Source: a candidate division WOR-3 bacterium UBA6260
GTDB taxonomy: Bacteria > Hydrothermota > 32-111
Direction of reading: 5' to 3'
Assembly (NCBI GenBank): GCA_002441125.1
Contig: DJVI01000009.1
Span: forward strand, 8,175-72,174
DNA length: 64,000 nucleotides
Part shown: one piece after another, positions 5,939 through 24,166 of the stretch
Position numbering within the stretch: position 1 is the stretch's first letter
How the letters are laid out: each line of letters opens with the position of its first letter
Program-made: the position numbers and the translations under genes
Notes under the pieces: generated by a model
The model's database searches: none
What the model saw: the letters and a program-made list of their open reading frames with translations, nothing else
What the model was told of the DNA's origin: nothing

Positions 5939-5976
5939 TCAAAAATGTCACACTGTCAAGCACCGTCCCCAATATT
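5939..5976. repeat. 38-bp direct repeat, left copy (tcaaaaatgtcacactgtcaagcaccgtccccaatatt); overlaps the 3' end of the KAP NTPase gene
   Basis: Identical by inspection to 15946-15983. It encodes the KAP protein's last residues NIGDGA plus the stop codon on the minus strand. Confidence 0.85.
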
Positions 5977-7944
5977 TGAATTTGAAATACCGTTACCAAT
6001 ATTGGAATTATTTACTATTTCCTTAAGTTTATTTAAACTATTTGTAATATCCTCTTTGAGATATTCATCAAAATTTTCTTTTTCCATTTCCATTTTATCA
6101 TTTACTTTAGCTAAAATATTTTGAAAAATATCTTTGACTTTTGCTTTATCATAATTACTAATAACATTAATCAAAATCTCTTCCAATAAAAGATCTCTTA
6201 TACTTAAACGAGATCCTTCTTTTACAAGTCGAAGATTATTTAAATAATGTTCTTTGATTTCATTTTTAAAGTTATCAAAATCTTTATTAAAAAATTCTAA
6301 AATTTCATTTATTGACTTAAATTTTTTTTTATTTATTTCTAAAAGATTTTCTTTTAAACCTAAATATAAATTCAGATTATATATTCTAAATAATCTTTTG
6401 AATAAAATAAATTGAACTACTTTTTTTTCGTTTTTTTTCATACCCTTAATAGTATTTTCAAATATGTCTTTAAAATCCAATTTTTCTTTAAATATTTCTC
6501 TAATAAAATTTATAATCATATTTTCTTGTTCTTCTTCATTATTTTTATAATTTATTTTAAAATAAATTAAAAACAATATAAGTTCCATTACACTTTTAAT
6601 CTCAACAATATTTTTATTAAGTAATAATTCTACTTTTTCAATAAAATTGTTTACTTTAGTTTTTTCGTCCTTATCACTTGACTGACCTAATATCTTATCC
6701 GAAATTTGTTCATTATTCTCTTTAAGGTTAATTAAATTTATATCTAATTGATGGATAAATAAAATCCTTTGGGTCATTAAATGTTCCCATATTAAAGGAT
6801 GCTTAAATTTTAACCATTCAATTAGGATAATATCTAACAAAAAAATATTCTCTGCTATTTCTTTTCTACCTTTTATTATTTGTTTCACATTTTCTGTTAA
6901 CATAATAACATCTCTAAAATCATCAAAATCAAAAATACTCGTTGATGTTAAGATATTGTTTAATAAAGCCAATATCAATTCTTTTTGAGAATCGTCATTA
7001 GATAAATGTTCATCAATTATTTCTATTTTTATTTTTTCTTGAAAAAAATCTCTCAAAATTTCAATAGGATTAACAAGTTCTATTTTATAATCGAATGTTT
7101 TATTTAAATAACCACTTATTAAATATTCCTTTTCAAAAATATTCATTAAAGCATTTCTATCAATAGTTGTTATAAGGTAAAAATTTGGAATCCTGCTAAA
7201 GCAGTTTATAAATTTAAATATCTCCAAAATTGTTTCACTATCTATTAATCTATCTAATTCATCTAATATTAGTATAAATTTTTTAGATTTAATATTTTTC
7301 TTAATATGATTTTTAAAATGGTTTAATCTATTTTCAAAATTTATAAGATCATCAATGTAAAATTTAAAACCACTAACTGTTACATCATAGTTTCTAAATA
7401 TATTTTCCCAATAACAATACCTAAATTTTAATCCTAAAAATTTTATAAGATTGTAATATATCTGCTCAGAAGAATAAAAACTTATTAAATTAAGATAAAC
7501 AATTTCTATTTCTTTATCTTTTTTACTTCCATTACTTTTTTTACAAAATGTTTTTTGAAAATATTTTAATAGAGTTGACTTACCTGTTCCCCATTTCCCT
7601 ACTACAGCAATTGTTGCATTATTAATCTCCACATTTTCAATAATACTCTTTAATTCTTCACAATTCTTTTTGATATTATATGCAGGTTCATCTATATTAC
7701 TCAAATGAGTATTTTTAATTTCATCATCTGAATATTGTACATTATTGAAAAATGTATCTCTCAAATACAAGATAAAAATAGAAATAATCAATAACAGTAA
7801 TGGTAAAATTATATTTAACAAATTTAGAAAATAATTGTAAAAAAGTTTAATTTTGAAAATTAATAACAAAATTAATAGAAAAAAGATTATTAAACCTATT
7901 CTATTTATAAACTTTTCTTTATTTGAATTAAACCACATCGACAA
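5956..7944 (-). CDS. KAP-family P-loop NTPase with N-terminal transmembrane helices
   Basis: 662 aa. Walker A AVVGKWGTGKST and Walker B ILILDELDRL, in the KAP NTPase arrangement. Two strongly hydrophobic N-terminal segments. Very AT- and Lys/Asn-rich. Confidence 0.65.
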   Translation of the reverse strand: MSMWFNSNKEKFINRIGLIIFFLLILLLIFKIKLFYNYFLNLLNIILPLLLLIISIFILYLRDTFFNNVQYSDDEIKNTHLSNIDEPAYNIKKNCEELKSIIENVEINNATIAVVGKWGTGKSTLLKYFQKTFCKKSNGSKKDKEIEIVYLNLISFYSSEQIYYNLIKFLGLKFRYCYWENIFRNYDVTVSGFKFYIDDLINFENRLNHFKNHIKKNIKSKKFILILDELDRLIDSETILEIFKFINCFSRIPNFYLITTIDRNALMNIFEKEYLISGYLNKTFDYKIELVNPIEILRDFFQEKIKIEIIDEHLSNDDSQKELILALLNNILTSTSIFDFDDFRDVIMLTENVKQIIKGRKEIAENIFLLDIILIEWLKFKHPLIWEHLMTQRILFIHQLDINLINLKENNEQISDKILGQSSDKDEKTKVNNFIEKVELLLNKNIVEIKSVMELILFLIYFKINYKNNEEEQENMIINFIREIFKEKLDFKDIFENTIKGMKKNEKKVVQFILFKRLFRIYNLNLYLGLKENLLEINKKKFKSINEILEFFNKDFDNFKNEIKEHYLNNLRLVKEGSRLSIRDLLLEEILINVISNYDKAKVKDIFQNILAKVNDKMEMEKENFDEYLKEDITNSLNKLKEIVNNSNIGNGISNSNIGDGA

Positions 7945-8372: not shown

Positions 8373-9296
8373 TTAAAATAATGACAATTCCCCTTGTCCA
8401 GATTTTTCCTCAACATATTTTAAATTTCTATTAGTATAAAACTGGTTCCTATATCTTTTTGGGTCGCCAATATCTGTTTTTTCTTTTGGGAAAAATCTAA
8501 CCATTATTCTCTTATTATAAGAACTATTTTTCGTATTATCAATTAGTTCAATGAGTAATGGCAAATAACAATCAGCAAGTTCTTCTCTATATTTTGATTT
8601 TTTACTCTTTTCAATACCATGAATAATACTTGTTGTTACACCGAGAACACAATCACATAATTGTATTAGGTTGGAACGTCTGTCTACTTTATGGTCTTTT
8701 GGAAGAAAAGTTATTTCTTTACAATTGAAGAATATATCTTCTTGTTCACTTATTTTGTAAATACAGTGCCAAGGGAAATATTTGTGTTGTTTTTGTTGTC
8801 CATCCTCGTGATAAATATTCTCAACAATAATTTTTTTATTCCCAAAAAATGTTTTTATGGCATATAATAATGCTGACCGAAAAAAACGATTGTATTTACT
8901 ATTGAAGTCATTATTCTGGTCAAACTCTTCTTTTGAAAGGTATGAGTTATTTAATCCAAGAATATATGAATAAAATTTCTTTTGACTTTTATCAGGGTTT
9001 AAAATATACTCAAACCATCTTCTACATATATTTTTTTCATCTGCACTTGCAATTTCTGACCAATGCATAATATGGTTGTTTTTCACATAATAAGGAGAAT
9101 TTATATCAAAATTGCCCTTAAATCGTTCCTGAATAATATCATCAAGTAAAGGATTGTCAATATCTTCAACAATCAACCCTATGTAATGCCATTCATTCCC
9201 AGTATATGAACAAAATTTGGATTGGATTTCATCGGCATAAATATTAATTGTAACAGGATTTTCTTTTATTTCATTACCAAATAAATCCTTGCTCAT
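8373..9296 (-). CDS. hypothetical protein (possibly DUF3800-like), translationally coupled to the methyltransferase
   Basis: 307 aa. Its start ATG overlaps the methyltransferase stop TGA (ATGA). An N-terminal INIYADE motif is loosely similar to the DUF3800 'iyiDES' signature. No other recognisable motif. Confidence 0.5.
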   Translation of the reverse strand: MSKDLFGNEIKENPVTINIYADEIQSKFCSYTGNEWHYIGLIVEDIDNPLLDDIIQERFKGNFDINSPYYVKNNHIMHWSEIASADEKNICRRWFEYILNPDKSQKKFYSYILGLNNSYLSKEEFDQNNDFNSKYNRFFRSALLYAIKTFFGNKKIIVENIYHEDGQQKQHKYFPWHCIYKISEQEDIFFNCKEITFLPKDHKVDRRSNLIQLCDCVLGVTTSIIHGIEKSKKSKYREELADCYLPLLIELIDNTKNSSYNKRIMVRFFPKEKTDIGDPKRYRNQFYTNRNLKYVEEKSGQGELSLF

Positions 9297-12200
9297 TGTC
9301 TCCCTTCCACTATTTTTATTTCCTCATCAGTCAAACCATATAATTTATAAACCATCTGGTCAATCTGGCGTTCGTATTCTTTAACTTTGGCCTGCTTTTC
9401 TTTGTTCTGCAAATAATCATCGTCTTTTGTTATTTCAAGAATTTTATCTACGATGTCAATAAAGGGTTGTTGGTCAATTTTTTCTAGTTCAACTATTGGT
9501 AAAGAATATAAAGCATAAATCCTAAACTGCGCAAGGGTTCGGTTTTTCTGACCGTATAAACCATTTTGATATAAAAAAGACAATAGTTTAGATGAAAACA
9601 AAGCTAATAGTAGTTTTATATTTATATAATTCATTTTGGATTTTACAACATATAAATTTTGATGAGCAATTGCAAAATCATATTTCACGGGTGGGACACA
9701 TAATATTGTATCTCCTGTTTTTCTAATAAAAATTCTTTCACCATTATGTAAATTATAATCATATTTTTGGCATTGTTTTTTTGGTAGATAAACTATTTTT
9801 GCGTAACAGTATCTGTTTAATAGATCATCTCTGATTATAGGTAAAACATTTTTTGATTTTTTGTAAAAAATTTTAGAAAAATTATTATCTAATGAATGTT
9901 CACCTTCCGATATTTTACAATATTCTTTCATTTTTTTGAGGACGTTTAAATAAATCTTTTTTGCTAAATGATTTTTATAAAAACAAATATTCCCATTAAT
10001 ATATTCAACCTTGACTAATTCCTCATTTATAATGTCTCTAAGTATATATTTTCTTATTAAGTCACGTTCTATCATTTTTATATCCGAATAATTTACATAT
10101 TTATTTTCAGACTTTAATTTTTGTGAAATAAATATTGCCGTGGCAACAATTGGTTCTTCAAAAATATTGAAACCTAAATCTACTATAATAATATTATGGA
10201 ATTTATTAATAATTATATCCCGTATATCAGCATATTTAGATAGTGTAATATATGTGTTTGGAGTAATATATGTTATTATTCCTTTTTCCTTTATAATTTG
10301 AGTCCCAAGTTGTATAAACCATTTATATAAATCCTTACATCCTTTTGAGGATTCTGGAAATCTTTTTGTTATATCCGCCAATTCTTTTTCTAATAATTCT
10401 GCTTCCTTTCTTTTTCCTTTTCTTATTAATTCTTTTACAGGACTACCTTTCCCACTTAGAAATTTATACGGAGGATTTGCAATGACAATATCAAACCCAT
10501 TTTTTTCGCGAAATACTTCAGAAAAATAAATATGAAAGTCAAATTCTATATTTCCAATAGTATGGTCTATTGTTCTTAAAAATTTTAGTTGTTCGATAAA
10601 TAATTTTTGAATCTCATCTCTAATTTTAACTTTTTCCATTAAGGATGTAGTAGAAAATAAAAGTTTTTTCTTCTCTTCTATTCTTTCGTTAATATTATTA
10701 TTTGGTAGAATATTTTCTGGTAAACCTAAAAGTGAATTTCCGCATACAAGTTTGTAATCCAGGTTTGGCAAAGGTTTTATTTTTGTAACATCATCTTCGT
10801 CAACTATTAGAGAAAGCCAGAACCTGAGTTTAGCAATATCTATTGCTGATGAATCAATATCTACGCCATAAATACAGTTTTCAATGCAATGACGTTTGAA
10901 ATTATATGATGTTCGTCCCTCTTGGTTAGATAAAAAATTTGTTAAAATATTTCTTGCCTTTACAATTTCCAGCATCATTCCAACAGGAAAGGCGCCTGAA
11001 CCAACGGCAGGATCGCAAACACGGATGTTTTCTAATTTTTCATCTATAAGTTTAGCATTATTCTTTATACTTTCAGGCATCTTAATCTTTTTATATTTCC
11101 CATTATATTCCGGGTTTTCTTCTATCCTTGCAATGACAAGTTTATCGTGTTCAATTGTTATATCTCCGTATTTAATAAGTATTTCAATATCTTCTTTTTT
11201 CACCTTGCCTTCACATTCTGTTGCTAAATAATTTATCAAACTCTCCTGGCACATATAATGAACAATCTCACGAGGAGTATAATATGCCCCCTGACCTTTT
11301 CGCAAGTTCTCTTCAATCAGGTTTTCAAAAACTTTACCAAGTAATTCAGGATCAAGAGCGACCTCTTTTTCAAGTGGCTCATCTTCTTGCACAGTAAAAT
11401 TATACCTATCAAAAACATCAAGAATGCCAGTGCCTATATCTCCTTCTTTCGTTTTTTCATTATTAGAGAACAATTCATTAGGAATAATTAAATCTTTTTT
11501 TTGCCAGTCGTAGTTGTTTACTGGTTCAAAAAGACCACCATTTAAAAATGGGATTTTACAATCAAAATAGTTTGAATATGTTGAATCTGCCTGATTTGTT
11601 CTTGGATTATTTAATGTGTTATAAAACAATACTTCAAGATAATCATTAAAGAAATTTTTCTTTTCTTCACTGCACTTTTTAAATAATGAACGCAGAAAAT
11701 TCCTGTCCCCTTCTCCCCAGTTTTTATCTTTTGGAACACCAAGCCAACCCTTCTTTTGTAAAAAATAGAGGAAGACTATTTGACCTAAAAGTTTTTTGGA
11801 AAAGTCTGATGTTTTTATCTTTTTATTTTCAAATTCTTCTTTAACATTATTATCATTTTTAACAATTGTTTCAATGGTATTATTTAATTTCTGATATAGG
11901 CTAAGGTATTGACTAAGAAATTCTTTTGTAATTTTTTCAACACTAAACGCTTTTTCAAGTTGTTCTAATGTGGGATTATTTACATCATCTTGTAAAATAG
12001 GGAGTAATTGTTGTTGAGCAGTATGATTGGGCTCATTTTTGCCTACCAGAAAAGAATATCTACGAGCAGGTGTAAACTCTTCTTCTCCTTTTGGCTTGCC
12101 TGATTTTGTTTGTGTTAATTTGTATTCCTTTTTAACCAGAGAAAAACGCCAATCGTCAAGTTCTGGTGAAACAAAAGCAACAACAGCAGCATCTTTTTCT

Positions 12201-12517
12201 TTAACAGAACCATATTTACCAGCAAGATAACCTGCAATAAAATTTCGTTGCATTGTCCTGGCACGTTCAATTGAAGTTTCTTTTTTTAAGTAAACTATTA
12301 AAATATCAATTCTTTTGTCTTCTGATACATATTTGCCAACTCGTTCGTATTTGTTAATATATGGCTCATATGTATCTGGTATGTATTGTCCATGATATTC
12401 AAACGGTTCCAAAGAAATTTTATTAAATAAGTTCTTTACAAAATAGACAAATCTTTCCTTTTCAAAAGAGTTTTCAAATGTTTCTCTTATCAATTTTATA
12501 GCAGATTTTTTATCCAT
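9293..12517 (-). CDS. MmeI/PglX-family gamma-class N6-adenine DNA methyltransferase (Type IIG/IIL-like), with N-terminal MmeI-like domain and C-terminal target-recognition region
   Basis: 1074 aa. Motif X GAYYTPREIV, motif I DPAVGSGAFPVG, motif IV VIANPPYKF. Stretches resemble MmeI by recall (RNFIAGY, LFYNTLNNP...IPFLNGGLFEP). C-terminal ...LYGLTDEEIKIVEG helix. GAAGG RBS 8 nt upstream, inside the helicase 3' end. Confidence 0.8.
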   Translation of the reverse strand: MDKKSAIKLIRETFENSFEKERFVYFVKNLFNKISLEPFEYHGQYIPDTYEPYINKYERVGKYVSEDKRIDILIVYLKKETSIERARTMQRNFIAGYLAGKYGSVKEKDAAVVAFVSPELDDWRFSLVKKEYKLTQTKSGKPKGEEEFTPARRYSFLVGKNEPNHTAQQQLLPILQDDVNNPTLEQLEKAFSVEKITKEFLSQYLSLYQKLNNTIETIVKNDNNVKEEFENKKIKTSDFSKKLLGQIVFLYFLQKKGWLGVPKDKNWGEGDRNFLRSLFKKCSEEKKNFFNDYLEVLFYNTLNNPRTNQADSTYSNYFDCKIPFLNGGLFEPVNNYDWQKKDLIIPNELFSNNEKTKEGDIGTGILDVFDRYNFTVQEDEPLEKEVALDPELLGKVFENLIEENLRKGQGAYYTPREIVHYMCQESLINYLATECEGKVKKEDIEILIKYGDITIEHDKLVIARIEENPEYNGKYKKIKMPESIKNNAKLIDEKLENIRVCDPAVGSGAFPVGMMLEIVKARNILTNFLSNQEGRTSYNFKRHCIENCIYGVDIDSSAIDIAKLRFWLSLIVDEDDVTKIKPLPNLDYKLVCGNSLLGLPENILPNNNINERIEEKKKLLFSTTSLMEKVKIRDEIQKLFIEQLKFLRTIDHTIGNIEFDFHIYFSEVFREKNGFDIVIANPPYKFLSGKGSPVKELIRKGKRKEAELLEKELADITKRFPESSKGCKDLYKWFIQLGTQIIKEKGIITYITPNTYITLSKYADIRDIIINKFHNIIIVDLGFNIFEEPIVATAIFISQKLKSENKYVNYSDIKMIERDLIRKYILRDIINEELVKVEYINGNICFYKNHLAKKIYLNVLKKMKEYCKISEGEHSLDNNFSKIFYKKSKNVLPIIRDDLLNRYCYAKIVYLPKKQCQKYDYNLHNGERIFIRKTGDTILCVPPVKYDFAIAHQNLYVVKSKMNYINIKLLLALFSSKLLSFLYQNGLYGQKNRTLAQFRIYALYSLPIVELEKIDQQPFIDIVDKILEITKDDDYLQNKEKQAKVKEYERQIDQMVYKLYGLTDEEIKIVEGRQ

Positions 12518-12520
12518 AAA

Positions 12521-15500
12521 TTAGCCTTCTTTAATAAGGTATTCAGAAAGTATAACTTCTCTCGGACCAGATGTCTGCCCTGGTAACTCAGAGCTTGGTG
12601 TTTTAAAAAATGTTTCAGGAATATTCTTCTTTATTATTCCATATATTTTTAAGTAATTGTTTTCTTTTCCAATTTTTTTTATTATATTTTTAACTGTTTG
12701 TTTAGGTATAACTCCTTCTTCAAGTAGAATTAGAACTTTGTTTAAATACTCTTCATCATCTTCAGTAAAACCTTTCATTTTTGATATTGCCTTTATTAAA
12801 ATCTTTAATCTTACATCACTACTTTTACCACCTTTGGTTTTAACTTCTTGAATATCTTCAACTAATGATGACTTAAAAGCATCTTTGTTCTTGTCTAAGT
12901 AGTCATAATATTTCTGACCTATTTTTTCTCGTTTAGTATCTTTGTTTGATTTCAATATTTCTGCTGTTTGAAAGAAATCCAATTCTTTTGTTGATTCTGC
13001 GTTACTAATAAACATTTTTCTTAATTTACCTTTTCTAAAAAAAGTTATTACAGATTCTTTATCAACAGAATGAATTTTAGCACTTCGTGCTTTTTTAGGT
13101 AAGCGTTTTATTTTTTCAAATAAGTCAGGATTATTGTCCCTGATATTTCTGAGTTCAGAAAGGTATTTAAGTTCGGACTCTTCTGATTCCTCACCTTCAA
13201 TAACTTCTTTAGAATTTAACCTTTTGAAAAGTTCAAATGAATTGACCTCTTCCCCTTCAGTTAAATAAGATGCATCTTCACCAAGAATATTGTGGAAAGC
13301 CTGCAATTTTCCAATAGCTGCTTCTTCTAATTTTATTTCTTCATTTGATTGGACTGTCGGAAAGAAATTATAAATAAAAATTTTATCAAACTGTGTATCT
13401 ACTCTGTTTATACGACCTACTCTTTGAATTATACGAACAGGATTCCAAGGAATATCATAATTTATAATAACATTGGAACGATGAAGATTAACTCCTTCAG
13501 AAAGAATATCTGTGGTAATTAAAATTTTTATATCGTCTTTTGGCTTACTGCTTTTTGGATCAAAATTTTCAATTATTTTTTCCTTTATAGGAGCACCTGA
13601 TTTGCTGGAAAATGATATAACAGCGTCTTTATACATACTCTTTAAATTCTTTTCAAGATATTCCGCTGTTTCCATTGATTCGGTAAAAACAATTATCTTA
13701 TTTTCTTTCAATATTTTATCTGTTGATAGTTTATGTATAAACTCATTGATTTTAGGGTCTGTTGTTATATCTTCCCAAAGCGTTTTTATTTCTTTTAAAA
13801 TTTTTAAGTCATTGTTCAGGTCTTCAATAAATTCTGGTCTAAATTCATTTATTTTATATTTTCTAACTTTTTCTTCTTCAATCAATTTCATTATTTCATC
13901 AATATTGTCATTTTCTAAAAGGTCAAATATTTTATTGGTATATTTTTTACTGATGTAAATAGTTCCTTTATCGAACATATTGATAAATTGCTCATAAGAA
14001 TATATAAATCTATCAAGTGTATTTTTAAACGCAAAAAAACTGCTTTCAAGCCTTTTGACAAGCAACACCTTCATAAATACTTTTAAATTTTTCTGTCCAA
14101 TTTCCTCCTCTTGGATAGGATTTTCTAAATATAAGAGCGGTGTATATCTGGAATACTTAAATAGTTTTATTTTATTTATTGTTTCATTAAAAATAAAATC
14201 TGTCTTTTCATCAAATTTATAATATAGTCTTTTAGGTGTCTTTACATCGGGGAACTTTAACCCTTTTTTTGTCAGGTCTTTACTGAAATACTTTTTTATA
14301 TCTTCTCTTGTTCTGCGAACTATAAGATATTTCAGGACATCTTCCCTTATCTTTTTTGAATTATCTTTCATGATTTTTATATATTTATCGAATTCTTTTA
14401 ATCGGTCTATTCCTTTTAGTCGTTTTTGCAATGTATTAAAATATTTTTCCAGATTTTTTATATTAGGAATTGTGCTATTTCTTCCTTTTTGAAATAGTTT
14501 TATCTGACTTAATATATCATTTGGAGTATTGTTCTGCGGTGTAGCTGAAATCAAAATTACCCTTTTCCCCCAGCATATCTGTTTTAATTTTTCATAAGTT
14601 TGCGTTGACTCATTACGAAACCTGTGTGCTTCATCTATAAAAACATTTTTGTATTCTCTTTTTTTTGTTATTTCAATTATATCATCTAACTTCCCTAACG
14701 ACTCTACAATAACTGGAACATGAAAATCCTGAAATGTGCTTTCCCAATAATCTTTAAGGATTGGTGGACAGATAACTAAATTACGACCATCTAACTGTTG
14801 TGCCAGCATTGCAGAAATATATGTCTTACCAAGACCTACTACATCTGACAGGAATACACCGCCATATTCTTCTAATTTATTTTTAGCATCACTTACTGCT
14901 TCCCGTTGATATTCAAAATTCATAAAACCGTGCGGAACATCAGGTGTGTTTATTTCCTCTTGATCAATATTTATTGTTTCCTTAAAATATTCATACAAAT
15001 ATTTTAAGTAGAGTTCGTAAGGAGTTATACTCTCATTAACCCATGTTCTGGTCTTGATTGTTTCAATATATTCCTGCGAGATATCCACTGAATTCTCCCA
15101 CAATTTGTTAAATGCAGTGATAGCAAATTCATAATCAGACGGGTTTTTTAGTTCAACATTAAATTCTAAGTTTTCTTTAAGACCAGCCTTAGTAAAGTTG
15201 CTCGAACCTGTAATAACTCTTCCTATATCTCTATCATTCTCTTTAAAAGTCATGATATAAAGTTTTGAATGTATATTTTCAGTAGGATATGCTTTAATCT
15301 CTATTTTCCCCTTTTGTACCCATTCAACGAATTTTGACACACCTTCTTCAACATTATGATTATCATCCGAATACTCCATTTCTTTTATAATGGAGCCATT
15401 AATTTTTTCTTTAACTTCAGAATAAGAATAGTAGAGGTTTAGTTGTTCATTTAATCTTGCTTTTTCAATATTTTCCATAGTTTCCTTATCAGTACATATT

Positions 15501-15679
15501 CCAACTAAGATCCTTATTTTTTCAGTATTCTCTAAAGATTTATAAAGTTCATAAAAACCGCTCATATAAAAATACCCAACCAAGACATCAAAATAACGAG
15601 TATCTTTTATAAGTAATTTGAATCTTTCAAGAAGGCTTTTATCTTTTTCGTTGGTAATAAATGTTAAATCTGAATCCAT
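12521..15679 (-). CDS. PLD-family (HKD) nuclease domain fused to SNF2/DEAH-box superfamily-2 helicase
   Basis: 1052 aa. N-terminal PLD motif IHSKLYI...GSSNFT. Helicase motif I GLGKTYIS, motif II VFIDEAHRFRN, motif III ILISATPQN, motifs V/VI ...TDILSEGVNL...QRVGRINR. Only 3 nt separate its stop from the methyltransferase start. Confidence 0.8.
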   Translation of the reverse strand: MDSDLTFITNEKDKSLLERFKLLIKDTRYFDVLVGYFYMSGFYELYKSLENTEKIRILVGICTDKETMENIEKARLNEQLNLYYSYSEVKEKINGSIIKEMEYSDDNHNVEEGVSKFVEWVQKGKIEIKAYPTENIHSKLYIMTFKENDRDIGRVITGSSNFTKAGLKENLEFNVELKNPSDYEFAITAFNKLWENSVDISQEYIETIKTRTWVNESITPYELYLKYLYEYFKETINIDQEEINTPDVPHGFMNFEYQREAVSDAKNKLEEYGGVFLSDVVGLGKTYISAMLAQQLDGRNLVICPPILKDYWESTFQDFHVPVIVESLGKLDDIIEITKKREYKNVFIDEAHRFRNESTQTYEKLKQICWGKRVILISATPQNNTPNDILSQIKLFQKGRNSTIPNIKNLEKYFNTLQKRLKGIDRLKEFDKYIKIMKDNSKKIREDVLKYLIVRRTREDIKKYFSKDLTKKGLKFPDVKTPKRLYYKFDEKTDFIFNETINKIKLFKYSRYTPLLYLENPIQEEEIGQKNLKVFMKVLLVKRLESSFFAFKNTLDRFIYSYEQFINMFDKGTIYISKKYTNKIFDLLENDNIDEIMKLIEEEKVRKYKINEFRPEFIEDLNNDLKILKEIKTLWEDITTDPKINEFIHKLSTDKILKENKIIVFTESMETAEYLEKNLKSMYKDAVISFSSKSGAPIKEKIIENFDPKSSKPKDDIKILITTDILSEGVNLHRSNVIINYDIPWNPVRIIQRVGRINRVDTQFDKIFIYNFFPTVQSNEEIKLEEAAIGKLQAFHNILGEDASYLTEGEEVNSFELFKRLNSKEVIEGEESEESELKYLSELRNIRDNNPDLFEKIKRLPKKARSAKIHSVDKESVITFFRKGKLRKMFISNAESTKELDFFQTAEILKSNKDTKREKIGQKYYDYLDKNKDAFKSSLVEDIQEVKTKGGKSSDVRLKILIKAISKMKGFTEDDEEYLNKVLILLEEGVIPKQTVKNIIKKIGKENNYLKIYGIIKKNIPETFFKTPSSELPGQTSGPREVILSEYLIKEG

Positions 15680-15744
15680 ATTTTTTCCCCTAAGTTAATA
15701 TCTTGATATTTTTTTATTCTTTATAAAATAAATTTAATTTGGTT

Positions 15745-15773
15745 ATTATAAATCACAATTATTTTATTGTCAA
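15745..15773 (-). promoter_or_regulatory. Candidate sigma70-type promoter for the helicase-methyltransferase operon
   Basis: Minus-strand TTGACA (15768-15773), 17-nt spacer, TATAAT (15745-15750), about 65 nt upstream of the helicase ATG at 15679. Confidence 0.4.
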
Positions 15774-15945
15774 CTTTTTTGAATAAACAATATATTTTTA
15801 GGTGTTTATAAATTTGTTATTATAAGTAGATAAAGTTTTTTTAAAAACAAAAAACATTGGCCGTGCAGCAGTGATTGCAAACTCAATAATAGATTTCAGA
15901 GTTATGAGTCCTGTCTTTGACCAATTTGACAAAATTGTTTCAAGA

Positions 15946-15983
15946 TCAAAAATGTCACACTGTCAAGCACCGTCCCCAATATT
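15946..15983. repeat. 38-bp direct repeat, right copy (identical to 5939-5976)
   Basis: Perfect match by inspection. Lies in the intergenic region upstream of the island operon. Confidence 0.85.
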
Positions 15984-16104
15984 ATCCTTAAAACAAAAAT
16001 TTGATTTGTTGTTTTAATATGTTTTTGCAATGATCGGAGAAGAGAAAAATTCATTTGTAAATTTTTTCTTGAACTAAAAATTTTTATCTTTATACTTTTT
16101 TAAT

Positions 16105-16908
16105 ATGTATGAAATTTTAAAAATTTACGCCTTTATTGTAAGAAAATTTATAAATAAAAAAAAGAACATCAAAAAGATGCATCCCCATTTAAAAAAGGGA
16201 TATGAAGAGTATTTGAAGTTAAAAGATAAAGAAATAGTTGAAATAGAAAATAGAAAATTTAAAATAATAAAAATAAAGACAAAAATTTTTCAGGGTGGAG
16301 AGGATCTTATTGGTTACATATATGAAAACTTAAAAGAGAGTTTAAAAGATAATGATATTTTAACTGTTGCTGAATCTATAATAGGTGTAACACAGAATAG
16401 AGCATATAGAGTTGATGAGATAAAACCATCAAAATGGGCTTACTTTTTATACCCTTGGGTATCAAATGTTGATTATGGAACTGGACTTGGTATGGCTGAA
16501 ACTATGGAATGTGCTATCAGAGAGGTAGGTTTGAAAAGGATTTTAAAAGCTACCTTTTTTGGTTTTTTGGATAGAATACGAAAAAAAAGCGGTTCATTCT
16601 ATAGGATAGCAGGGAAAGAGGTTAAGAGCATTGATTTTAAGAAGAACCATCCTATACCTTTCAAAGGTTCCAACAACTATATAGTCCTTTCACCAAAAGA
16701 ACCAGAGATTTTTGCAAAAAAAGTTTACAAAAAATTTTCAAAAAATATTTTTGTCTCTGTTGTAGATGCCAACAATGTTTCAGTAGATGTACTTGCACTC
16801 TATCCTGAAGATAAAAAAATAGAAAAAATCATATATAATGTTATGAAAGGAAATCCAGCTGGACAGGACGATGAAAAAACACCTATCATTATTATCAGAG
16901 AAATTTAA
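16105..16908 (+). CDS. CofE-like (F420-0:gamma-glutamyl ligase family) protein
   Basis: 267 aa. Pattern FQGGEDLIGYI...DILTVAESIIGVTQNRAYRV resembles the CofE-family core. The start may be the internal ATG near 16177. Confidence 0.45.
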   Translation: MYEILKIYAFIVRKFINKKKNIKKMHPHLKKGYEEYLKLKDKEIVEIENRKFKIIKIKTKIFQGGEDLIGYIYENLKESLKDNDILTVAESIIGVTQNRAYRVDEIKPSKWAYFLYPWVSNVDYGTGLGMAETMECAIREVGLKRILKATFFGFLDRIRKKSGSFYRIAGKEVKSIDFKKNHPIPFKGSNNYIVLSPKEPEIFAKKVYKKFSKNIFVSVVDANNVSVDVLALYPEDKKIEKIIYNVMKGNPAGQDDEKTPIIIIREI

Positions 16909-18205
16909 ATCGAACTTTTTTAAGTCCATATTTTCAACTTCAATACTGATAGGTATATCGAGATTTACAGGTTTTTTAAGAGAGGTTGTCTACTCAGCAT
17001 ATCTCGGGACATCAAGGATAATGGATGGTTTTTTAGTTGCTTTTCTGATACCCAACTTTTTCAGAAGGATATTGGGAGAAAGGGCAGCTGAATCAGTTTT
17101 TTTACCAATGTATATAAGGGAGAGAGAAAAAAGTGAAAAAGATGCTAACGATTATATGTCAATTTTTTTCACAACAGTATCAATTATTTTGATTTTAGGA
17201 ATAATAGTTCTTTACATATTCTCTCCTCTAATACTAAAAATCCTTGCTCCGGGTTTTGACAAAGAAACTTTTAACATATCTTTGAAGATAACCTACATAA
17301 TTCTTCCATACATGTTTTTCATAGGAATATACAGTTTTTTAGGTTCTCTTCTTGAATCTTATAAAAGATTTTCTCTATATAACATCTCTCCTCTTTTATT
17401 CAACATTGTGATGGTTGTGGCTATTCCACTCTTTTATAAAAAAAATCCAGTTCTAACAATATCCTTCTCAGTTCTTGTCGGAGTTATAGCTCAAACAGCT
17501 ATACTTTTTTTAGGTTTAAAAAATTTACCTGTTAAATTCAGGTTCAAAATTTCTTTCAAAGATGAAAGGATAAAAAGAACATTTTATCTTCTTCTCCCAA
17601 TAATACTTGCAAGTTTTATAGAAAAAAGTGCTATATATATTGACAGGATTTTTGGGTCAATACTTGGTACAGGTGCTATATCCTCACTGCATTTTTCCTT
17701 TCTTTTAACCGACCTCCCTTTTGCAGTTTTTTCGATAGCTATTTCAAAAGTCATCCATCCTTACATTTCAGAGAAAGAAGTTTATTCCTCAAAAAATAAT
17801 TTCAAAAAGTATATAAAAAGAGGTATTATTTTAAATGTGATGATACTTTTACCAATAACTTTATTTTTTATAATATTTGCAAAAAGTATAATAAGGATAG
17901 TTTACTTAAGAGGTGAATTCAACATAAATTCTTTGAATATGACTTACCTTCCATTCATATATTATACAGTGGGACTGATACCAATGGGGTTGATACAAGT
18001 TTTTGCAAAAGGTTTTTATTCTCTTCTAAACACAAAAACTCCCCTTTATGTTTCAGGTTTTGCTATGTTAATTAATGTATTTCTTAATATAATTCTTATG
18101 CCAAAATTTAACATCGCTGGAATAGCGCTTGCGACATCCCTATCATACTGGATACACGCGATATACCTTTACTTTAAATTAAAAAAGAATATGGACAGAT
18201 TATGA
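16871..18205 (+). CDS. murJ: lipid II flippase MurJ (MviN family)
   Basis: 444 aa polytopic membrane protein. N-terminal RFTGFLREVVYSAYLGTS...DGFLVAFLIPNFFRRILGE signature of MurJ. Confidence 0.75.
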   Translation: MKKHLSLLSEKFKSNFFKSIFSTSILIGISRFTGFLREVVYSAYLGTSRIMDGFLVAFLIPNFFRRILGERAAESVFLPMYIREREKSEKDANDYMSIFFTTVSIILILGIIVLYIFSPLILKILAPGFDKETFNISLKITYIILPYMFFIGIYSFLGSLLESYKRFSLYNISPLLFNIVMVVAIPLFYKKNPVLTISFSVLVGVIAQTAILFLGLKNLPVKFRFKISFKDERIKRTFYLLLPIILASFIEKSAIYIDRIFGSILGTGAISSLHFSFLLTDLPFAVFSIAISKVIHPYISEKEVYSSKNNFKKYIKRGIILNVMILLPITLFFIIFAKSIIRIVYLRGEFNINSLNMTYLPFIYYTVGLIPMGLIQVFAKGFYSLLNTKTPLYVSGFAMLINVFLNIILMPKFNIAGIALATSLSYWIHAIYLYFKLKKNMDRL

Positions 18206-18570
18206 GAATTTCAAATGGAATAGATATTATAGAAATCGAAAGGATCAGAAAAAAATTTGAAAGAGATCTCAAATTCAAAGAAAAAATATTCACACAAAAA
18301 GAGTTGAAGCAGGTTGAAGGCCTTGAAATAGAATATATAGTTCTCGCCGGAAAATGGGCTTCAAAAGAAGCTTTTTCGAAAGCACTTGGAACTGGTATTG
18401 GGAAAGAGTTGGATTGGAAAGATATCCAGATAAGTAACGATATTACGGGTAAGCCTCAGGTTGAAGTTTCAAAAGATATTATAGAAAAATATGGTATAGA
18501 AGAGATTTCTTTATCAATATCACATATCAAAGATTACGCTGTTGCTTCAGTTGTCATCCTTTTCAATTAA
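18202..18570 (+). CDS. acpS: holo-[acyl-carrier-protein] synthase
   Basis: 122 aa. GIDIIEIERI...LAGKWASKEAFSKALGTG...ISISH motifs of the AcpS 4'-phosphopantetheinyl transferase. Confidence 0.8.
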   Translation: MRISNGIDIIEIERIRKKFERDLKFKEKIFTQKELKQVEGLEIEYIVLAGKWASKEAFSKALGTGIGKELDWKDIQISNDITGKPQVEVSKDIIEKYGIEEISLSISHIKDYAVASVVILFN

Positions 18571-21129
18571 ACCTGCTATCCTTTTCTTTAAACCTTTTAT
18601 AGAAGTGTTATCATCTTTCTCAATTTTAGAAATCTTTTCAAGATAACCTTTATACATTTTTATCAGATATCTGTATTTATCGTTAGAGATAAGTTTGTAA
18701 ATAGTAATATACTCTTCATAATTTTTTAAATCTCCAACATTCTGCATATACCTTAATGTTGAGGAGAACTCGGAAAGATAGTTAGATATAGCCTGCCTTA
18801 CTATCCTGTCCTTTTCACTATCAATTTTTTTAACGAAATACTCAACCTTATCAAACTTATGTTTTCTCATAGATTCAACTATCTCAACCTTCAACCTGTA
18901 ACTACCATTATCGAAATTTTCGAGTAGGAAGGAGAGATCAACATTTGTATCAAGTTCACCTATCGCGTAGACAACAAGTTCCTTTATTTTGTAATCAGGA
19001 TAGTTAACATTCTCTTTCAAAACATTGAAAGATGGATTGTATTTCATCTGTGAAAGTATATAAATGATATTTTTCTTAGTGTTTTTATCTTCAACTTTTT
19101 GTAGTTTTTGAACTATTTTATTTTTCAAACTATCTGAACAATTTTTGAAAAAGAAATTTATAGCTTCAAGTTCAAGACCATCATCTGTTGAGATTTTTTT
19201 ATCAAGTATATACCTGACAGATTCAGTCTCCCTTTCAAGTAATATCTTTCTTGCTTTTTGAACCTTATAAGAGTTATCCCTAACTGCCCACTCTGAAGAT
19301 ATTTCAAAAATTTTCTCTATCGGAAAATCATTTTTAACAATAAAAGTATCGGGTTCCTTTTTCTCTTCAACAAATCCAACATCAATTCCAAAGCCATAAA
19401 ATCTGTTTATCCAGCTTATAGAATCTCTACTACCACTTCTCGAATAGAAATCTTTTCCTTCACAATCTATGAAAAGTCCAATACCTGAAAATCCTCTCGA
19501 TTCGTTAACATCTCCATTTGAAAGTTTCTCACTGGTAAAGTAAGAATCGTTACCCTTTTTATCGAGAAATATCCCAACGGAATTGTTAAGACCAACTCCC
19601 TGTCCACCTGAAACTGTATAGTTGTCATCACCTTTTTGATCTATCAAAACTCCATAAGCGAAATCATGACCTTCTCCCTGAGATGGTCCAAACCTTGAGA
19701 AATAACTATCATCACCACTGTAATCGAAAAGCCCACCTGTTGAAAGATGTATTCCAGAACCTTGAGCATATTGTGCTGATGTGTAATAATCGTTTCCTGA
19801 AAAATCAAAAAGTAATCCTATACTATGCCAATAACTTCCACCCTGTCCAAATACTGATGAAAAATAGTTATCATTCCCTTTGTAATCAACAAGTATCCCA
19901 ATTCCACCACATGTTCTTGGTCTAAGACCAAAACCAAATCCTTGACTCATCGAAAGGTAATCATTTTCAAGTAATGGTGTATGTTTAAAAAAAGTTCCAG
20001 ATGTATAATTATCATCACCAGAAGAATCTACGAGTATCCCACATCCTTTAACGAATCCAAAACCCTGCGAAAATGCTGAAGAGTAGTATATATCGTTACC
20101 CGATAGATCTATTAACTCTCCCCTTCCATAATAACCAGCCCCCTGAGAGAAGAATCCAGATCTGTAATAATCATTTCCTGAAAGGTCACAAAGTTGGGAG
20201 AACCCTATAAATGCAGCACCAAGAGAAAAATTGGATGTTATATAAATATCGTTCCCGGCAAGATCGTAGAGAAAACTAACTCCATTTATTGAACCAAATG
20301 AAACTCTGAAACTATCTGTTGATAAATACTGGTCGTTACCATCAAAATCAATTATGAATTTAACTCTGTTTGTATAAGGGTATATAACTCCACCACTATT
20401 AACATATTTATCATCACCACCAAGATCTATTATAAAATCGTATTCATCATAGTATGTGTTTGAATAGATATCACCTACAAAAAGTCTTCCATTTGAAAGG
20501 AATGTGTCAATAGGATAAAAAAGACCCTTCATAAAAAATTCTGTGATCTTGGCTTTGAACTGATCTGTTAAAATTTTGATCCTATCAAAATCTGGATCAA
20601 CAAAATATGAGTATGTTATAAGAGAATCAACTTTCAAAGAGTTTGTATCAACATTCAAACCAAAAGATTGTTCTACTCTTCCTTTGTAAATATAGGATAA
20701 GGATTCTTCGAAAAAAAGGAGAGGAATAAGTTGTAATATATCTTTACTCTTATCAACATTAATTTTTATCTTCTCCCTTAAAATTTGATTGACATCTTTT
20801 GTGTAAGCATCTATTAGTTCAAAAGGGTTTGTGAAATTTTCGTAAACATTCTTTTTATCTTTTAAAAATTTCAATTCAACTATTGAATCTAAGTAGAATT
20901 CCCTTTTCTGAACAAGCAAAAGTGGTGAATTCAAAAGTGTATCAGCAAGTTTGAAAAGAAAAGAATCGTTTGATGAAAAATCTTTTTTAAAGTTTAGATC
21001 CTTTTCTATCAAACCAAAATTTTTCATCTTTTCGTTAATTATTCTATAATCGTCCTGCGGAATATTTCCAAAAATTGAAAGACAAAATAAAGTTATGATA
21101 AAGATTTTGATCAAATTTCTAAGAAACAT
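18547..21129 (-). CDS. secreted repeat protein (about 12-14 tandem D-x-x-G-(N/D)-D-x-Y units) with C-terminal HEAT-like region
   Basis: 860 aa. N-terminal signal-peptide-like hydrophobic segment. Central array of repeats such as DLSGNDIYYSSAFSQGFGF, DSSGDDNYTSG, DYKGNDNYFSSVFGQGGS, DFSGNDYYTSAQYAQGSG. Confidence 0.55.
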   Translation of the reverse strand: MFLRNLIKIFIITLFCLSIFGNIPQDDYRIINEKMKNFGLIEKDLNFKKDFSSNDSFLFKLADTLLNSPLLLVQKREFYLDSIVELKFLKDKKNVYENFTNPFELIDAYTKDVNQILREKIKINVDKSKDILQLIPLLFFEESLSYIYKGRVEQSFGLNVDTNSLKVDSLITYSYFVDPDFDRIKILTDQFKAKITEFFMKGLFYPIDTFLSNGRLFVGDIYSNTYYDEYDFIIDLGGDDKYVNSGGVIYPYTNRVKFIIDFDGNDQYLSTDSFRVSFGSINGVSFLYDLAGNDIYITSNFSLGAAFIGFSQLCDLSGNDYYRSGFFSQGAGYYGRGELIDLSGNDIYYSSAFSQGFGFVKGCGILVDSSGDDNYTSGTFFKHTPLLENDYLSMSQGFGFGLRPRTCGGIGILVDYKGNDNYFSSVFGQGGSYWHSIGLLFDFSGNDYYTSAQYAQGSGIHLSTGGLFDYSGDDSYFSRFGPSQGEGHDFAYGVLIDQKGDDNYTVSGGQGVGLNNSVGIFLDKKGNDSYFTSEKLSNGDVNESRGFSGIGLFIDCEGKDFYSRSGSRDSISWINRFYGFGIDVGFVEEKKEPDTFIVKNDFPIEKIFEISSEWAVRDNSYKVQKARKILLERETESVRYILDKKISTDDGLELEAINFFFKNCSDSLKNKIVQKLQKVEDKNTKKNIIYILSQMKYNPSFNVLKENVNYPDYKIKELVVYAIGELDTNVDLSFLLENFDNGSYRLKVEIVESMRKHKFDKVEYFVKKIDSEKDRIVRQAISNYLSEFSSTLRYMQNVGDLKNYEEYITIYKLISNDKYRYLIKMYKGYLEKISKIEKDDNTSIKGLKKRIAGLIEKDDN

Positions 21130-21826: not shown

Positions 21827-24166
21827 TCATTTACCTAAGTATAAAAATTTTCCCTTTGCTAAATTATTTTTTGACTCTATTTTGAAAAAGTAAACACCAC
21901 CGGAGATCTTTTCCTTCCCAAGATCTAAACTTATCCTGTCAACATTAGGATTGTAATCTACACTTTTTATTACTCTTCCATTGTTATCATAAATTTTTAA
22001 TGTTACATTTTCTTTAAGATTTTCGAAAAATGAGATTGAAAATATTCCTGAAGTTATTGTTGAAACATTTTTCACAAAATGTATTTTTTTACCATCTTTC
22101 GAAATTTCATCTATACCTGTAAGTTCAGATGCCTTGAAAAGATTGTGCAGAAGTGGTAGAAAATCCCCAGAAATCTCATCTCCAACAAACCCGTCAGCAG
22201 GGAAGATATTCACTCCTATAACACCACCCTTAGGGGAGGGAAGATTTCTATACCCTAAAAGCCATTCACCATCACTAAATCTTGCGACAGAATCAGCACC
22301 AGCATTTAAAACCAAATAATCTCTAAAATAAGAAACAAGTGAGTCCACATTTTGCATAAATGGATGTGAGGCAATATATGTACCAAGATCACTATAAGAG
22401 TAATGGCTATTTCCGTTTAAAGGTCTAAAAGGATTTATGAGCGTATCCATTATACCACCACGGAGATCACAACCAAATGAAGTAAACCAACAAAAAGTTC
22501 CTGTTATAACCCATTTACCTTCATTAACAAATTGTAGTAAGGTATCTCCAAGGCTATCAGGTTCAAGATAATTCATATTTGGCTGGGTATAAACAAGATC
22601 ATATATTGACAGGTCAACTCTGTTTGGAAGAAAAAGTGCAGCATTGAAGTAATCTATATTTCCAAAATCTGGATACTCTTCAATTTGTTGAATTATATTT
22701 TGAGAACAATTATAATCAGCAACAGCCCACATTATATTTGGATTGTTTCCATATACCCAGTACATATCTATATTTTCACCAATTTGTGAGTACGCATAAC
22801 CATAAGCATACTCAAAAGGCATTGTTGTGGCTATAATTCCACCTTTTTCTATCCTTTTTATGAAAAGTATAGTATCAATATTGTCTGATGTAAGAATTAC
22901 AGGGTATGAATTCTCAGGTAAATTGATCAAACCTCCATGAGAAGAGTGATTCCAACCTGAAAGTGTTGAACTGTTTTCATCAGAAAACTCATTTAAAAAT
23001 GGATGCCACTCTTTCAAAATTGAAACACTATCTTTTGTTTCAAAATGCATAGTAAAACCAAAAGGCATTTCAACACCACTCCAATCGTTAGAATTGTAAG
23101 TTGCACCATTGATCTGTAAAACACCTCCATTCCTGACCCAATCTTCATACCTTACTTTATCTGAAGATAACGCTTGATAAAAGCTATTAGGCTGAGCTGA
23201 GGCGAATATACATTTTTGAAATCTTGTCAGATCTACAAGATAAATTTCACTTCCGATAAAATGATGAAAAGCTATTCTATGATTATAAAGAATATCTTCA
23301 TTCGATGCTAAACCCCATGGGGCTTGGGTTTCAAAGTATGCTACCCTTGTTTTCGCGTATCCAACATCAAACCTGTATGCATAAGTATTCAAATAAGTTG
23401 TAACCCAAATATCGTTACCATCAAAAGCAACTCCTTCCCCTGTATTCGATGGCTCAGGATATGGAAAACTATCAATTTTTGCTGGTGGATCTACACTTAT
23501 ATCAAGTTTGTAAACCTTCTCGTTTACACCATCTAAAACCCAAAGAGTTGAATCTATATCACAATATGCTATATCCATAGGCCATCCAATAATTGTTGCA
23601 ATATGCAAAGTATCTATAATATTTAAAAGAGTATCGGTTACAAAAATAAAACCGCTACTGACACCTCCTCCAGTTGAGGCTATATAGAGTTTTTCACCAT
23701 CACTTGTTACTCCTCTTGTATAGTTTGAACCGGGTGAAATATAAGTAGAAACAGGTGTATGATTTTTATTTATTTTCTCTATGGTACCATTAGTAAAGTT
23801 TGAAATGTAAAGATTATCACCAACAATTCCTATTCCAAAAATTGAACCGAGGTTTGGCATAGGAATAGAATCTAAAATACCATAAATATAGTCAATTTTA
23901 AAAACATATGCAGGGTTTGTTTTATTGTTTGCAAGATAAAAATACCTGCCATCAAATTCTAAACCATTTGATTGTGACCTCTGGTAGTTAAAAGTATCTA
24001 TCGGATTACCATCCAAAGCTAAAGATTTAAAATTTCCAATTTTCCCTTCATAGCCACCAGAAAAAGATGATGAAAAAAGAAATGAGAAAATAAAAAGAGT
24101 TAGAAAAAAGACAGAGATTTTTTTCATATAACCTCCCTTTTTTAAATTTTTTTTATTATACACCAT
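21827..24166 (-). CDS. secreted protein with T9SS-type C-terminal sorting domain
   Basis: 779 aa. Signal peptide. C-terminal ...VTLKIYDNNGRVIKSV...GGVYFFKIESKN...GKFLYLGK resembles the Por/T9SS C-terminal-domain consensus. Confidence 0.55.
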   Translation of the reverse strand: MVYNKKNLKKGGYMKKISVFFLTLFIFSFLFSSSFSGGYEGKIGNFKSLALDGNPIDTFNYQRSQSNGLEFDGRYFYLANNKTNPAYVFKIDYIYGILDSIPMPNLGSIFGIGIVGDNLYISNFTNGTIEKINKNHTPVSTYISPGSNYTRGVTSDGEKLYIASTGGGVSSGFIFVTDTLLNIIDTLHIATIIGWPMDIAYCDIDSTLWVLDGVNEKVYKLDISVDPPAKIDSFPYPEPSNTGEGVAFDGNDIWVTTYLNTYAYRFDVGYAKTRVAYFETQAPWGLASNEDILYNHRIAFHHFIGSEIYLVDLTRFQKCIFASAQPNSFYQALSSDKVRYEDWVRNGGVLQINGATYNSNDWSGVEMPFGFTMHFETKDSVSILKEWHPFLNEFSDENSSTLSGWNHSSHGGLINLPENSYPVILTSDNIDTILFIKRIEKGGIIATTMPFEYAYGYAYSQIGENIDMYWVYGNNPNIMWAVADYNCSQNIIQQIEEYPDFGNIDYFNAALFLPNRVDLSIYDLVYTQPNMNYLEPDSLGDTLLQFVNEGKWVITGTFCWFTSFGCDLRGGIMDTLINPFRPLNGNSHYSYSDLGTYIASHPFMQNVDSLVSYFRDYLVLNAGADSVARFSDGEWLLGYRNLPSPKGGVIGVNIFPADGFVGDEISGDFLPLLHNLFKASELTGIDEISKDGKKIHFVKNVSTITSGIFSISFFENLKENVTLKIYDNNGRVIKSVDYNPNVDRISLDLGKEKISGGVYFFKIESKNNLAKGKFLYLGK

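Follow-up and report, generated by a model that had tools for sequence, protein, structure and literature searches.

The window analyzed here, a stretch of 64,000 nucleotides, contained two adjacent genes on the minus strand. The downstream ORF (9293..12517, minus strand) translated to a methyltransferase/specificity subunit of 1074 aa, namely a gamma-class N6-adenine methyltransferase (MTase) with a C-terminal variable target-recognition domain (TRD). The upstream ORF (12521..15679, minus strand) encoded a partner of 1052 aa comprised of an N-terminal PLD (HKD) nuclease and an SNF2-type helicase (Pfam PLDc_2, SNF2-rel_dom, and Helicase_C). By the ORF coordinates, the junction of the two genes (12515..12530, minus strand) ran from the helicase stop codon through 3 nt to the methyltransferase ATG, and a purine-rich stretch lay inside the 3' end of the helicase gene at this junction; we infer from the sequence that translation of the helicase and the methyltransferase may be coupled. 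The window neighbors of the pair were a 307-aa ORF and a KAP/AAA_22 NTPase downstream, and the rest were housekeeping genes.

The methyltransferase began with a conserved, basic alpha/beta domain (residues 1-168; 12014..12517, minus strand) that belonged to no Pfam family and lacked a catalytic triad. Between this N-terminal domain and the MTase core was a helical region (residues 169-260; 11738..12013, minus strand). Helices in residues 165-260 were predicted at 165-176, 184-191, 194-221, 223-231, and 236-255, with pLDDT >90 at 201-250. Residues 169-260 sit where HsdM-N and PglX-type proteins have their helical bundle, to which they may correspond. The translation contained both MTase motifs: the AdoMet-binding motif I (D502-P-A-V-G-S-G508; 10994..11014, minus strand) and the catalytic motif IV (N681-P-P-Y684; 10466..10477, minus strand). 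MTases are divided into classes by motif order (the Malone classification); as motif I precedes motif IV here, the order is gamma. The block holding motif I (residues 501-525) had a mean top-residue frequency of 0.79. In the variable target-recognition half (residues about 801-1040; 9398..10117, minus strand) the top-residue frequency was 0.10-0.34, and divergence of this half was uncoupled from that of the helicase (r about 0.1).

Pfam matches of the 1074-aa protein were Eco57I (1.1e-27), N6_Mtase (6.4e-11), and a weak TaqI_C, and a PDB sequence search with the full protein returned MTase cores only (BseCI, CamA, TaqI, and DrdV). The PADLOC model REase_MTase_IIG (PDLC03596) spanned the protein end to end with 835 bits.

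In the partner, the catalytic residues of the PLD domain were conserved throughout the 52 partner proteins compared: H and K were invariant in H137-x-K139 (15263..15271, minus strand), as was all of G158-S-S-N161 (15197..15208, minus strand). Among the same 52 proteins the helicase Walker A motif (G282-L-G-K-T286; 14822..14836, minus strand) was invariant except for L283 (0.98), motif II (D349-E-A-H352; 14624..14635, minus strand) had invariant D and E with A at 0.90 and H at 0.98, and motif VI was invariant or nearly so. The SNF2 ATPase motifs are intact, there is one HKD half-site per chain, and the PLD domain is acidic (-8). PADLOC models matched by the partner were 'HKD+Snf2' (3e-42) and DrmD (1.7e-36). 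NCBIfam matches were phospholipD_antiphage (NF042964; 3e-43, 148 bits vs. a cut-off of 1100 bits) and DrmD (4.8e-41, 141 bits vs. a cut-off of 610 bits).

In a scan limited to a single genome for each species, at least 583 loci were seen to encode the N-terminal domain, and 80 of them were analyzed. In 72 of the 80, the PLD-SNF2 gene was directly upstream of the methyltransferase gene, with both on the same strand. Six of the other eight had less than 3.1 kb of upstream sequence, and the two with the full 10 kb upstream were decayed: one (L077) had an IS at the expected place of the helicase and the other (L078) contained a truncated orphan methyltransferase beside dxs. The helicase is present wherever intact upstream DNA is available, and the linkage is obligate. 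Helicase-MTase fusions were found in none of the 80 loci; the window and each of the 80 had two ORFs with a stop between them, and the longest ORF was 1367 aa. The distance from stop to ATG was 2-17 nt in most loci, and the junction was tight in loci without cargo insertions. The 307-aa ORF and the KAP ATPase were considered as third and fourth components and rejected, as neither recurred beside the pair in other loci (L026 was the one locus where the 307-aa ORF was seen again, at a distance of about 3 kb); the conserved unit is thus the two genes.

The N-terminal domain was matched by 1086 cluster representatives at E<=1e-3, and in nearly all of the best 150 of these 1086 it was located at the very N-terminus. 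Altogether, the family comprises over 1000 clusters (50% identity) and occurs widely among uncultivated anaerobes, with at least 583 representative genomes at the species level. The plasmid collection contained only a 153-aa remnant, on a Sulfitobacter plasmid. No Pfam domain was on record for any of 120 N-terminal fragments of the methyltransferase family, and no experimental work on this methyltransferase/PLD-helicase family was found in the literature searched.

Conservation was assessed in two sets: 120 close relatives, and 114 full-length representatives that came from a library after clustering at 50% identity. Invariant or nearly invariant residues of the N-terminal domain were R59, D71, L73, L77, R87, R91, N92, Y97, L98, W123-R-F-S126, R153, S155, V158, G159, E162, and H165-T-A167. 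The domain was conserved as strongly as the MTase core, whereas the C-terminal recognition half was hypervariable; the domain is no decaying relic. Across the family the domain had a mean net charge of +4.4 and a pI of 8.9. Being as conserved as the MTase core, basic, and rich in invariant arginine and aromatic residues, the domain has a function.

AF2 models of residues 1-260 and 1-168 were confident, with pLDDT values of 84 and 82. The predicted elements were helices at 3-14 and 20-31, strands at 35-42, 54-65, and 68-77, a helix from 84 or 87 to 98, and a strand at 110-116, after which long hairpins extended to 159. Residues 35-159 were predicted to be mostly beta strand. The order of these elements in the models was alpha-alpha-beta-beta-beta-alpha-beta. 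The restriction-endonuclease fold has the core order alpha-beta-beta-beta-alpha-beta.

Foldseek of the model against the PDB gave nothing significant, and the profile of the domain against PDB sequences gave nothing meaningful (the best hit was a MarR protein, E = 0.12). Searches of 34 N-terminal domains against Pfam at E<=10 gave sub-significant matches only: Cas_Cas4 (four members, best 0.067) and YhcG_C (one member, 0.005). Scores of this size are about what multiple testing allows. An hhalign comparison with a genuine YhcG nuclease was non-significant (0.08%) and aligned RID71IL with AIDLK. The domain is uncharacterised; Pfam has no model for it, and none of its relatives has been solved. 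Element order and the structural neighbors, together with the sub-significant Cas4 and YhcG matches, give weak but consistent support to its being a PD-(D/E)xK fold in which the catalytic site has been lost.

The active site of such a fold would be a catalytic acidic pair and a lysine on strands 2 and 3, and these were not found in the domain. On strand 2, residue 58 was E in 71 of 115 divergent relatives and K or R in 30; on strand 3, where the motif reads D71-x-L73, residue 73 was L in 108 of 115. Among residues 1-270 of 112 representatives, no aligned (D/E)xK exceeded a frequency of 47%. The first-pass annotation had suggested a catalytically inactive N-terminal domain and had named an intact triad elsewhere in that domain as evidence against it; a search of residues 1-270 found no such triad, and the sequence is consistent with inactivity. 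The annotation's word 'degenerate' may also hold, in another register, as D71-I-L73 falls at the place of (D/E)-x-K on predicted strand 3. Its further suggestion, that cleavage is delegated to the PLD nuclease of the partner, is credible given the linkage of the gene in 72 of 80 loci and the invariant H137, K139, and G158-S-S-N161. A narrower proposal, that the domain is an adaptor built on a dead nuclease fold, we hold tentatively and at slightly less than even chances.

Of the other explanations for the domain, the one that best survives is that it is not a protein-protein adaptor, but binds DNA or senses its state, by reading methylation or by gripping DNA beside the site. The basic charge across the family would fit this role, as would the five invariant or nearly invariant arginines with W123, F125, and Y97. 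There is also precedent, as a role in sensing nucleic acids has been proposed for inactive nuclease-fold domains of related helicases (PMC12839542), and in MANTIS a separate small protein has been proposed as a modification reader (bioRxiv 10.64898/2026.09.23.753747). However, the domain had no detectable similarity to the reader folds EVE, YTH, and SRA, and the role is compatible with that of an adaptor and does not exclude it. As a replacement for the adaptor reading, it is unlikely.

A second explanation is that the domain is an active, non-canonical nuclease or nickase (using, for example, D71, K108-D109, E162, and H165), which would give the system two nucleases, i.e., a Type IIG-like enzyme plus a helicase. 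The conservation of the domain equals that of the catalytic core, the polar residues D71, K108, D109, E162, and H165 are invariant, a nuclease-like fold signal is weak but present, and the PADLOC model that covers the whole protein was built from annotated Type IIG enzymes. That label, however, reflects annotation rather than an assay, the canonical strands carry no conserved (D/E)xK or equivalent, and the invariant set is mainly Arg, aromatic, and Ser, a composition seen more typically in binding surfaces. Additionally, the obligate partner already has an intact nuclease. This explanation is improbable, and clearly more so than DNA sensing; the adaptor remains the preferred role.

The third explanation was that of the first-pass annotation, which had read the domain as resembling the MmeI nuclease domain up to a shared FIAGY segment, with the MmeI residues D70, E80, and K82 replaced by a permuted or degenerate D71-x6-K78-K79-E80. 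Within the segment concerned (residues 60-100; 12218..12340, minus strand), strand 2 ends and is followed by strand 3, which carries D71, then by a variable loop, and then by the helix at 84-98, in which R87, R91, and N92 are invariant. The residues named by the annotation (D71, K78-K79-E80, and FIAGY at 93-97) are present in the translation, as confirmed by a hand check of the codons of 12218..12340, and the surrounding residues read GKYVSEDKRID71ILIVYLK78K79E80TSIERARTMQRNF93IAGY97LAG. The MmeI numbering of the annotation was also correct, as the N-terminus matches PDB chain 5hr4_C exactly. In 40 MmeI-family N-terminal domains D70, E80, and K82 were invariant, together with Q94-x3-Y98.

The comparison itself breaks down. 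FIAGY lies at 146-150 in MmeI, about 65 residues past E80-x-K82, and at 93-97 here, 13 residues after K-K-E. If D71 were matched to D70, a deletion of 53 residues would be needed to bring the two FIAGY segments together, and both anchors therefore cannot share one alignment. Of the MmeI pattern (D70...E80-x-K82 followed by Q94-x3-Y98) only D71 was conserved; its codon (12305..12307, minus strand) encodes the sole conserved acidic residue of residues 60-100, kept in 111 of 115 divergent relatives. In the same relatives K78 was K in 63, K79 was K in 64, and E80 was E in 52. The codons 12278..12286 (minus strand) thus encode a variable loop rather than a permuted E-x-K or another catalytic motif. 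G96 of F93-I-A-G-Y97 (12227..12241, minus strand) was mostly W, D, or R within the methyltransferase family, so FIAGY is not a motif of this family and its identity with MmeI 146-150 is chance.

Homology searches agreed with this result and put the N-terminal resemblance to the MmeI nuclease domain at chance level. BLASTP against MmeI found only a hexapeptide (E = 1.1). With hhalign, the family profile had a probability of 5.8% against the single sequence of MmeI residues 1-304 and, profile to profile, 0.43% against MmeI-family N-terminal domains. PF20464 (MmeI_N) was matched neither by the full protein nor, at E<=10, by the N-terminal domain; it was carried by 120 of 120 relatives of the MmeI N-terminal domain, in contrast to 0 of 120 methyltransferase-family fragments. 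A permuted, dead homologue of the MmeI (Type IIL) nuclease would share its architectural place, N-terminal to a gamma-class MTase, the conserved D71, and a sub-threshold MmeI_Mtase match confined to the MTase part (2e-05, 24.4 bits vs. a cut-off of 27), but with these profile scores, no PF20464, a non-colinear FIAGY, an unconserved K-K-E, and no equivalent spacing for Q94-x3-Y98 the explanation is largely refuted and is the most improbable of the three.

The annotation had also called the N-terminus PglX-like. In PglX/BrxX, however, the first 230 or so residues form a purely helical bundle with homology to HsdM-N (PMC12839542). As residues 35-159 of the present protein are rich in beta strand, the label was dropped. 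The functional conclusion of the annotation is supported; its reasoning from MmeI and PglX is not.

It is very likely that the N-terminal domain is not MmeI-like, has no canonical triad, and leaves the cutting to the PLD partner; DNA is almost certainly cut by the PLD/helicase protein encoded upstream. The reading as a whole, which joins this to the tentative view of the domain as an inactivated nuclease-fold module and adaptor within the modification and specificity subunit of a two-gene, ATP-dependent RM system, is held somewhat less firmly, though still on the favorable side of even. Methyltransferase motifs I and IV are intact and there is a single hypervariable TRD. The MTase-TRD would recognize an asymmetric site and methylate one adenine on one strand. 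An unmodified site would engage the SNF2 motor, which would then translocate on DNA. By analogy with SauUSI, MtsD, and Type ISP enzymes, two PLD domains would have to come together to build a single active site, so that DNA would be cleaved after complexes dimerise or collide. The N-terminal domain would dock the MTase-TRD subunit to the PLD-SNF2 motor-nuclease, and it would relay binding of an unmodified site to the latter, grip the flanking DNA, or both.

The most specific form of this reading is that the domain is an exapted, dead REase-fold module which couples recognition by the MTase-TRD to an MtsD-like PLD-SNF2 motor-nuclease and licenses activation of the latter, in a minimal two-protein class. 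This form is speculative, and we rate it below the adaptor role itself. In a mirror-tree analysis, distances in the N-terminal domain, the linker, and the MTase core correlated about equally with those in the helicase (r 0.5-0.76). As this correlation does not discriminate the N-terminal domain from the MTase core, the adaptor role is put forward here as a proposal.

Several known systems resemble the pair. Type ISP enzymes (LlaGI and LlaBIII) likewise have a nuclease, an SF2 motor, a gamma-class adenine MTase, and a single TRD, and an asymmetric site with ATP-dependent translocation before cleavage would be expected here as well. A dedicated coupler reportedly joins motor and MTase in Type ISP enzymes, as Chand et al. 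are said to have found in 2015. Type ISP enzymes differ in being one polypeptide with an Mrr-type PD-(D/E)xK nuclease, helicase, coupler, MTase, and TRD, whereas here there are two polypeptides, a PLD/HKD nuclease, and an extra domain at the MTase N-terminus.

In MANTIS/Gao_RL (BREX-related type 2), the effector MtsD is a PLD nuclease fused to an SF2 helicase, and two copies dimerise to create one active site (bioRxiv 10.64898/2026.09.23.753747). The partner has the same PLD-SF2 architecture, but its match to phospholipD_antiphage (148 bits) is far below the 1100-bit cut-off. MANTIS also requires the DUF499 AAA+ ATPase MtsA and the DUF3870 protein MtsB, and has an alpha-class MTase (bioRxiv 10.64898/2026.09.23.753747), whereas the MTase here is gamma-class with its own TRD and the extra N-terminal domain. 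No DUF499 or DUF3870 genes were present among the window ORFs scanned, and on these grounds and that of MTase class membership was rejected. By analogy, the present system may be viewed as a split Type ISP with a PLD nuclease or as a minimal system related to the effector arm of MANTIS.

Type IIG/IIL enzymes (MmeI, BpuSI, and DrdV) have an N-terminal PD-(D/E)xK nuclease; here there was neither a triad nor homology to MmeI_N, and the PLD-helicase partner is obligate. The gamma-class N6-adenine MTase motifs and C-terminal TRD of a Type IIG enzyme are present in the 1074-aa protein, but a functional nuclease within the MTase polypeptide is apparently absent, and the Type IIG label of this family is probably a mis-assignment.

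Class 1 DISARM (DrmD + DrmMI + DrmC, with DrmA/DrmB) and ARMADA also place an SNF2 helicase beside a large adenine MTase, together with a PLD nuclease, and the matches of the partner to DrmD were partial, as was one of the methyltransferase to DrmMI (1.4e-24, below the cut-off). Here, however, the PLD is fused to the helicase and all scores were far below the family cut-offs. DrmA/DrmB (DUF1998) genes were absent among the window ORFs scanned, and membership was rejected for lack of either. PglX/BrxX of BREX has in common with the present protein a gamma-class adenine MTase, a TRD, and asymmetric-site modification, with a partial BREX_1_MTaseX match (76 bits vs. a cut-off of 500); with no BrxC or PglZ genes, BREX membership was rejected. 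Hma membership was rejected as well, since the Hma helicase has a C-terminal PD-(D/E)xK nuclease.

Overall, the flagged motif itself is no discovery, being a chance pentapeptide and a variable loop. The object underlying it is a broad, large family of two-gene PLD-helicase plus methyltransferase systems, and its value is modest: the two-gene system is a variant of known ATP-dependent RM systems with an uncharacterised conserved domain. The filing of such proteins by PADLOC under Type IIG, i.e., as self-cutting enzymes, is suggested to be wrong, which affects censuses of defence systems and the use of these proteins as stand-alone Type IIG reagents. If the speculative reading of an exapted REase-fold module is true, a minimal two-protein class of ATP-dependent RM, a split, PLD-armed analogue of Type ISP, is now mislabelled as Type IIG. 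As MtsD is now structurally characterised, the family offers a simpler, two-protein setting in which to study how a PLD-helicase nuclease is switched on by a site-specific MTase.

Across 36 loci, divergence of the methyltransferase recognition half (residues ~601-1040; window 9398..10117, minus strand, and the homologous positions) was independent of divergence of the PLD-SNF2 helicase partner (r ~0.1-0.2), whereas divergence of residues 1-600 was correlated with it (r 0.5-0.76). With the recognition half uncoupled from the helicase and residues 1-600 coupled to it, the sequence comparison suggests that the target-recognition half (TRD) is swapped within a conserved chassis.

In 28 of 72 loci (among L002-L079), unrelated cargo of 0.35-2.1 kb separated the helicase gene from the methyltransferase gene; the junction was otherwise 2-17 nt long. 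Cargo lay between the helicase stop and the methyltransferase start at, for example, L007 7221-9357, L004 8955-10001, L019 9153-10001, L029 9393-10001, L042 2426-3283, and L010 6506-8598. Domains found in the representatives scanned were: SLFN_AlbA_2 with HATPase_c_4, DUF4062 with HATPase_c_4, a YhcG/DUF1016 nuclease, Bro-N, NYN, and DUF3800. Toxin-antitoxin pairs and an IS200-like gene were identified by eye only. Type I restriction-modification (R-M) operons also carry hitch-hiking genes, and the junction cargo of the PLD-helicase/methyltransferase pair is of the same kind.

In a Latescibacterota locus (L077; regions 8412-9809 and 13510-18016), a DDE transposase sat in the helicase's place, the methyltransferase N-terminus and the remainder of the protein were in different frames, and a Gabija-like pair (OLD-family ATPase and UvrD helicase) lay directly downstream. 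Several short proteins of 250-430 aa carrying the N-domain (the conserved methyltransferase N-terminus), namely P0029, P0096, P0103, P0119, and P0120, were encoded on contigs of 85 kb to 2 Mb; a frameshift or truncation of the methyltransferase gene may account for them, or the N-domain may stand alone in these proteins. The sole plasmid match to the N-domain (L081; Sulfitobacter dubius plasmid NZ_CP085149.1, 3325-4700) was a 153-aa protein annotated 'hypothetical protein', with 41.6% identity across residues 1-134. It was preceded by a 304-aa hypothetical ORF, and the locus looks like what is left of a two-gene system of this kind.

Within the window, a 307-aa ORF (8373..9296, minus strand) overlapped the methyltransferase stop by 4 nt and, because of this overlap, is probably co-transcribed with the methyltransferase. 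It had zero matches in Pfam, PADLOC, and NCBIfam; the only locus with a homologue (66% identity) was L026, where it lay ~3 kb downstream of the methyltransferase. At 5956..7944 (minus strand), a 662-aa P-loop NTPase of the KAP/AAA_22 type, whose N-terminus is hydrophobic, had a weak PifA-like PADLOC match (2.2e-10) and coincided with the window's lowest-GC patch (19.7% versus ~29%). It is probably an abortive-infection-type gene that was acquired separately and adjoins the R-M pair.

Among housekeeping genes, an 860-aa ORF (18547..21129, minus strand) had no Pfam match at 1e-5. The adjoining 779-aa ORF (21827..24166) matched Por_Secre_tail at 26.6 bits, below the cut-off of 27, which hints that the host carries a T9SS and resembles the FCB group.

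The PADLOC model PDLC03596 (Type IIG restriction enzyme-methyltransferase) spanned the window methyltransferase (9293..12517) end to end. Because the catalytic triad is missing and the PLD-helicase partner is obligate, the Type IIG label probably mis-describes the methyltransferase family as a whole.
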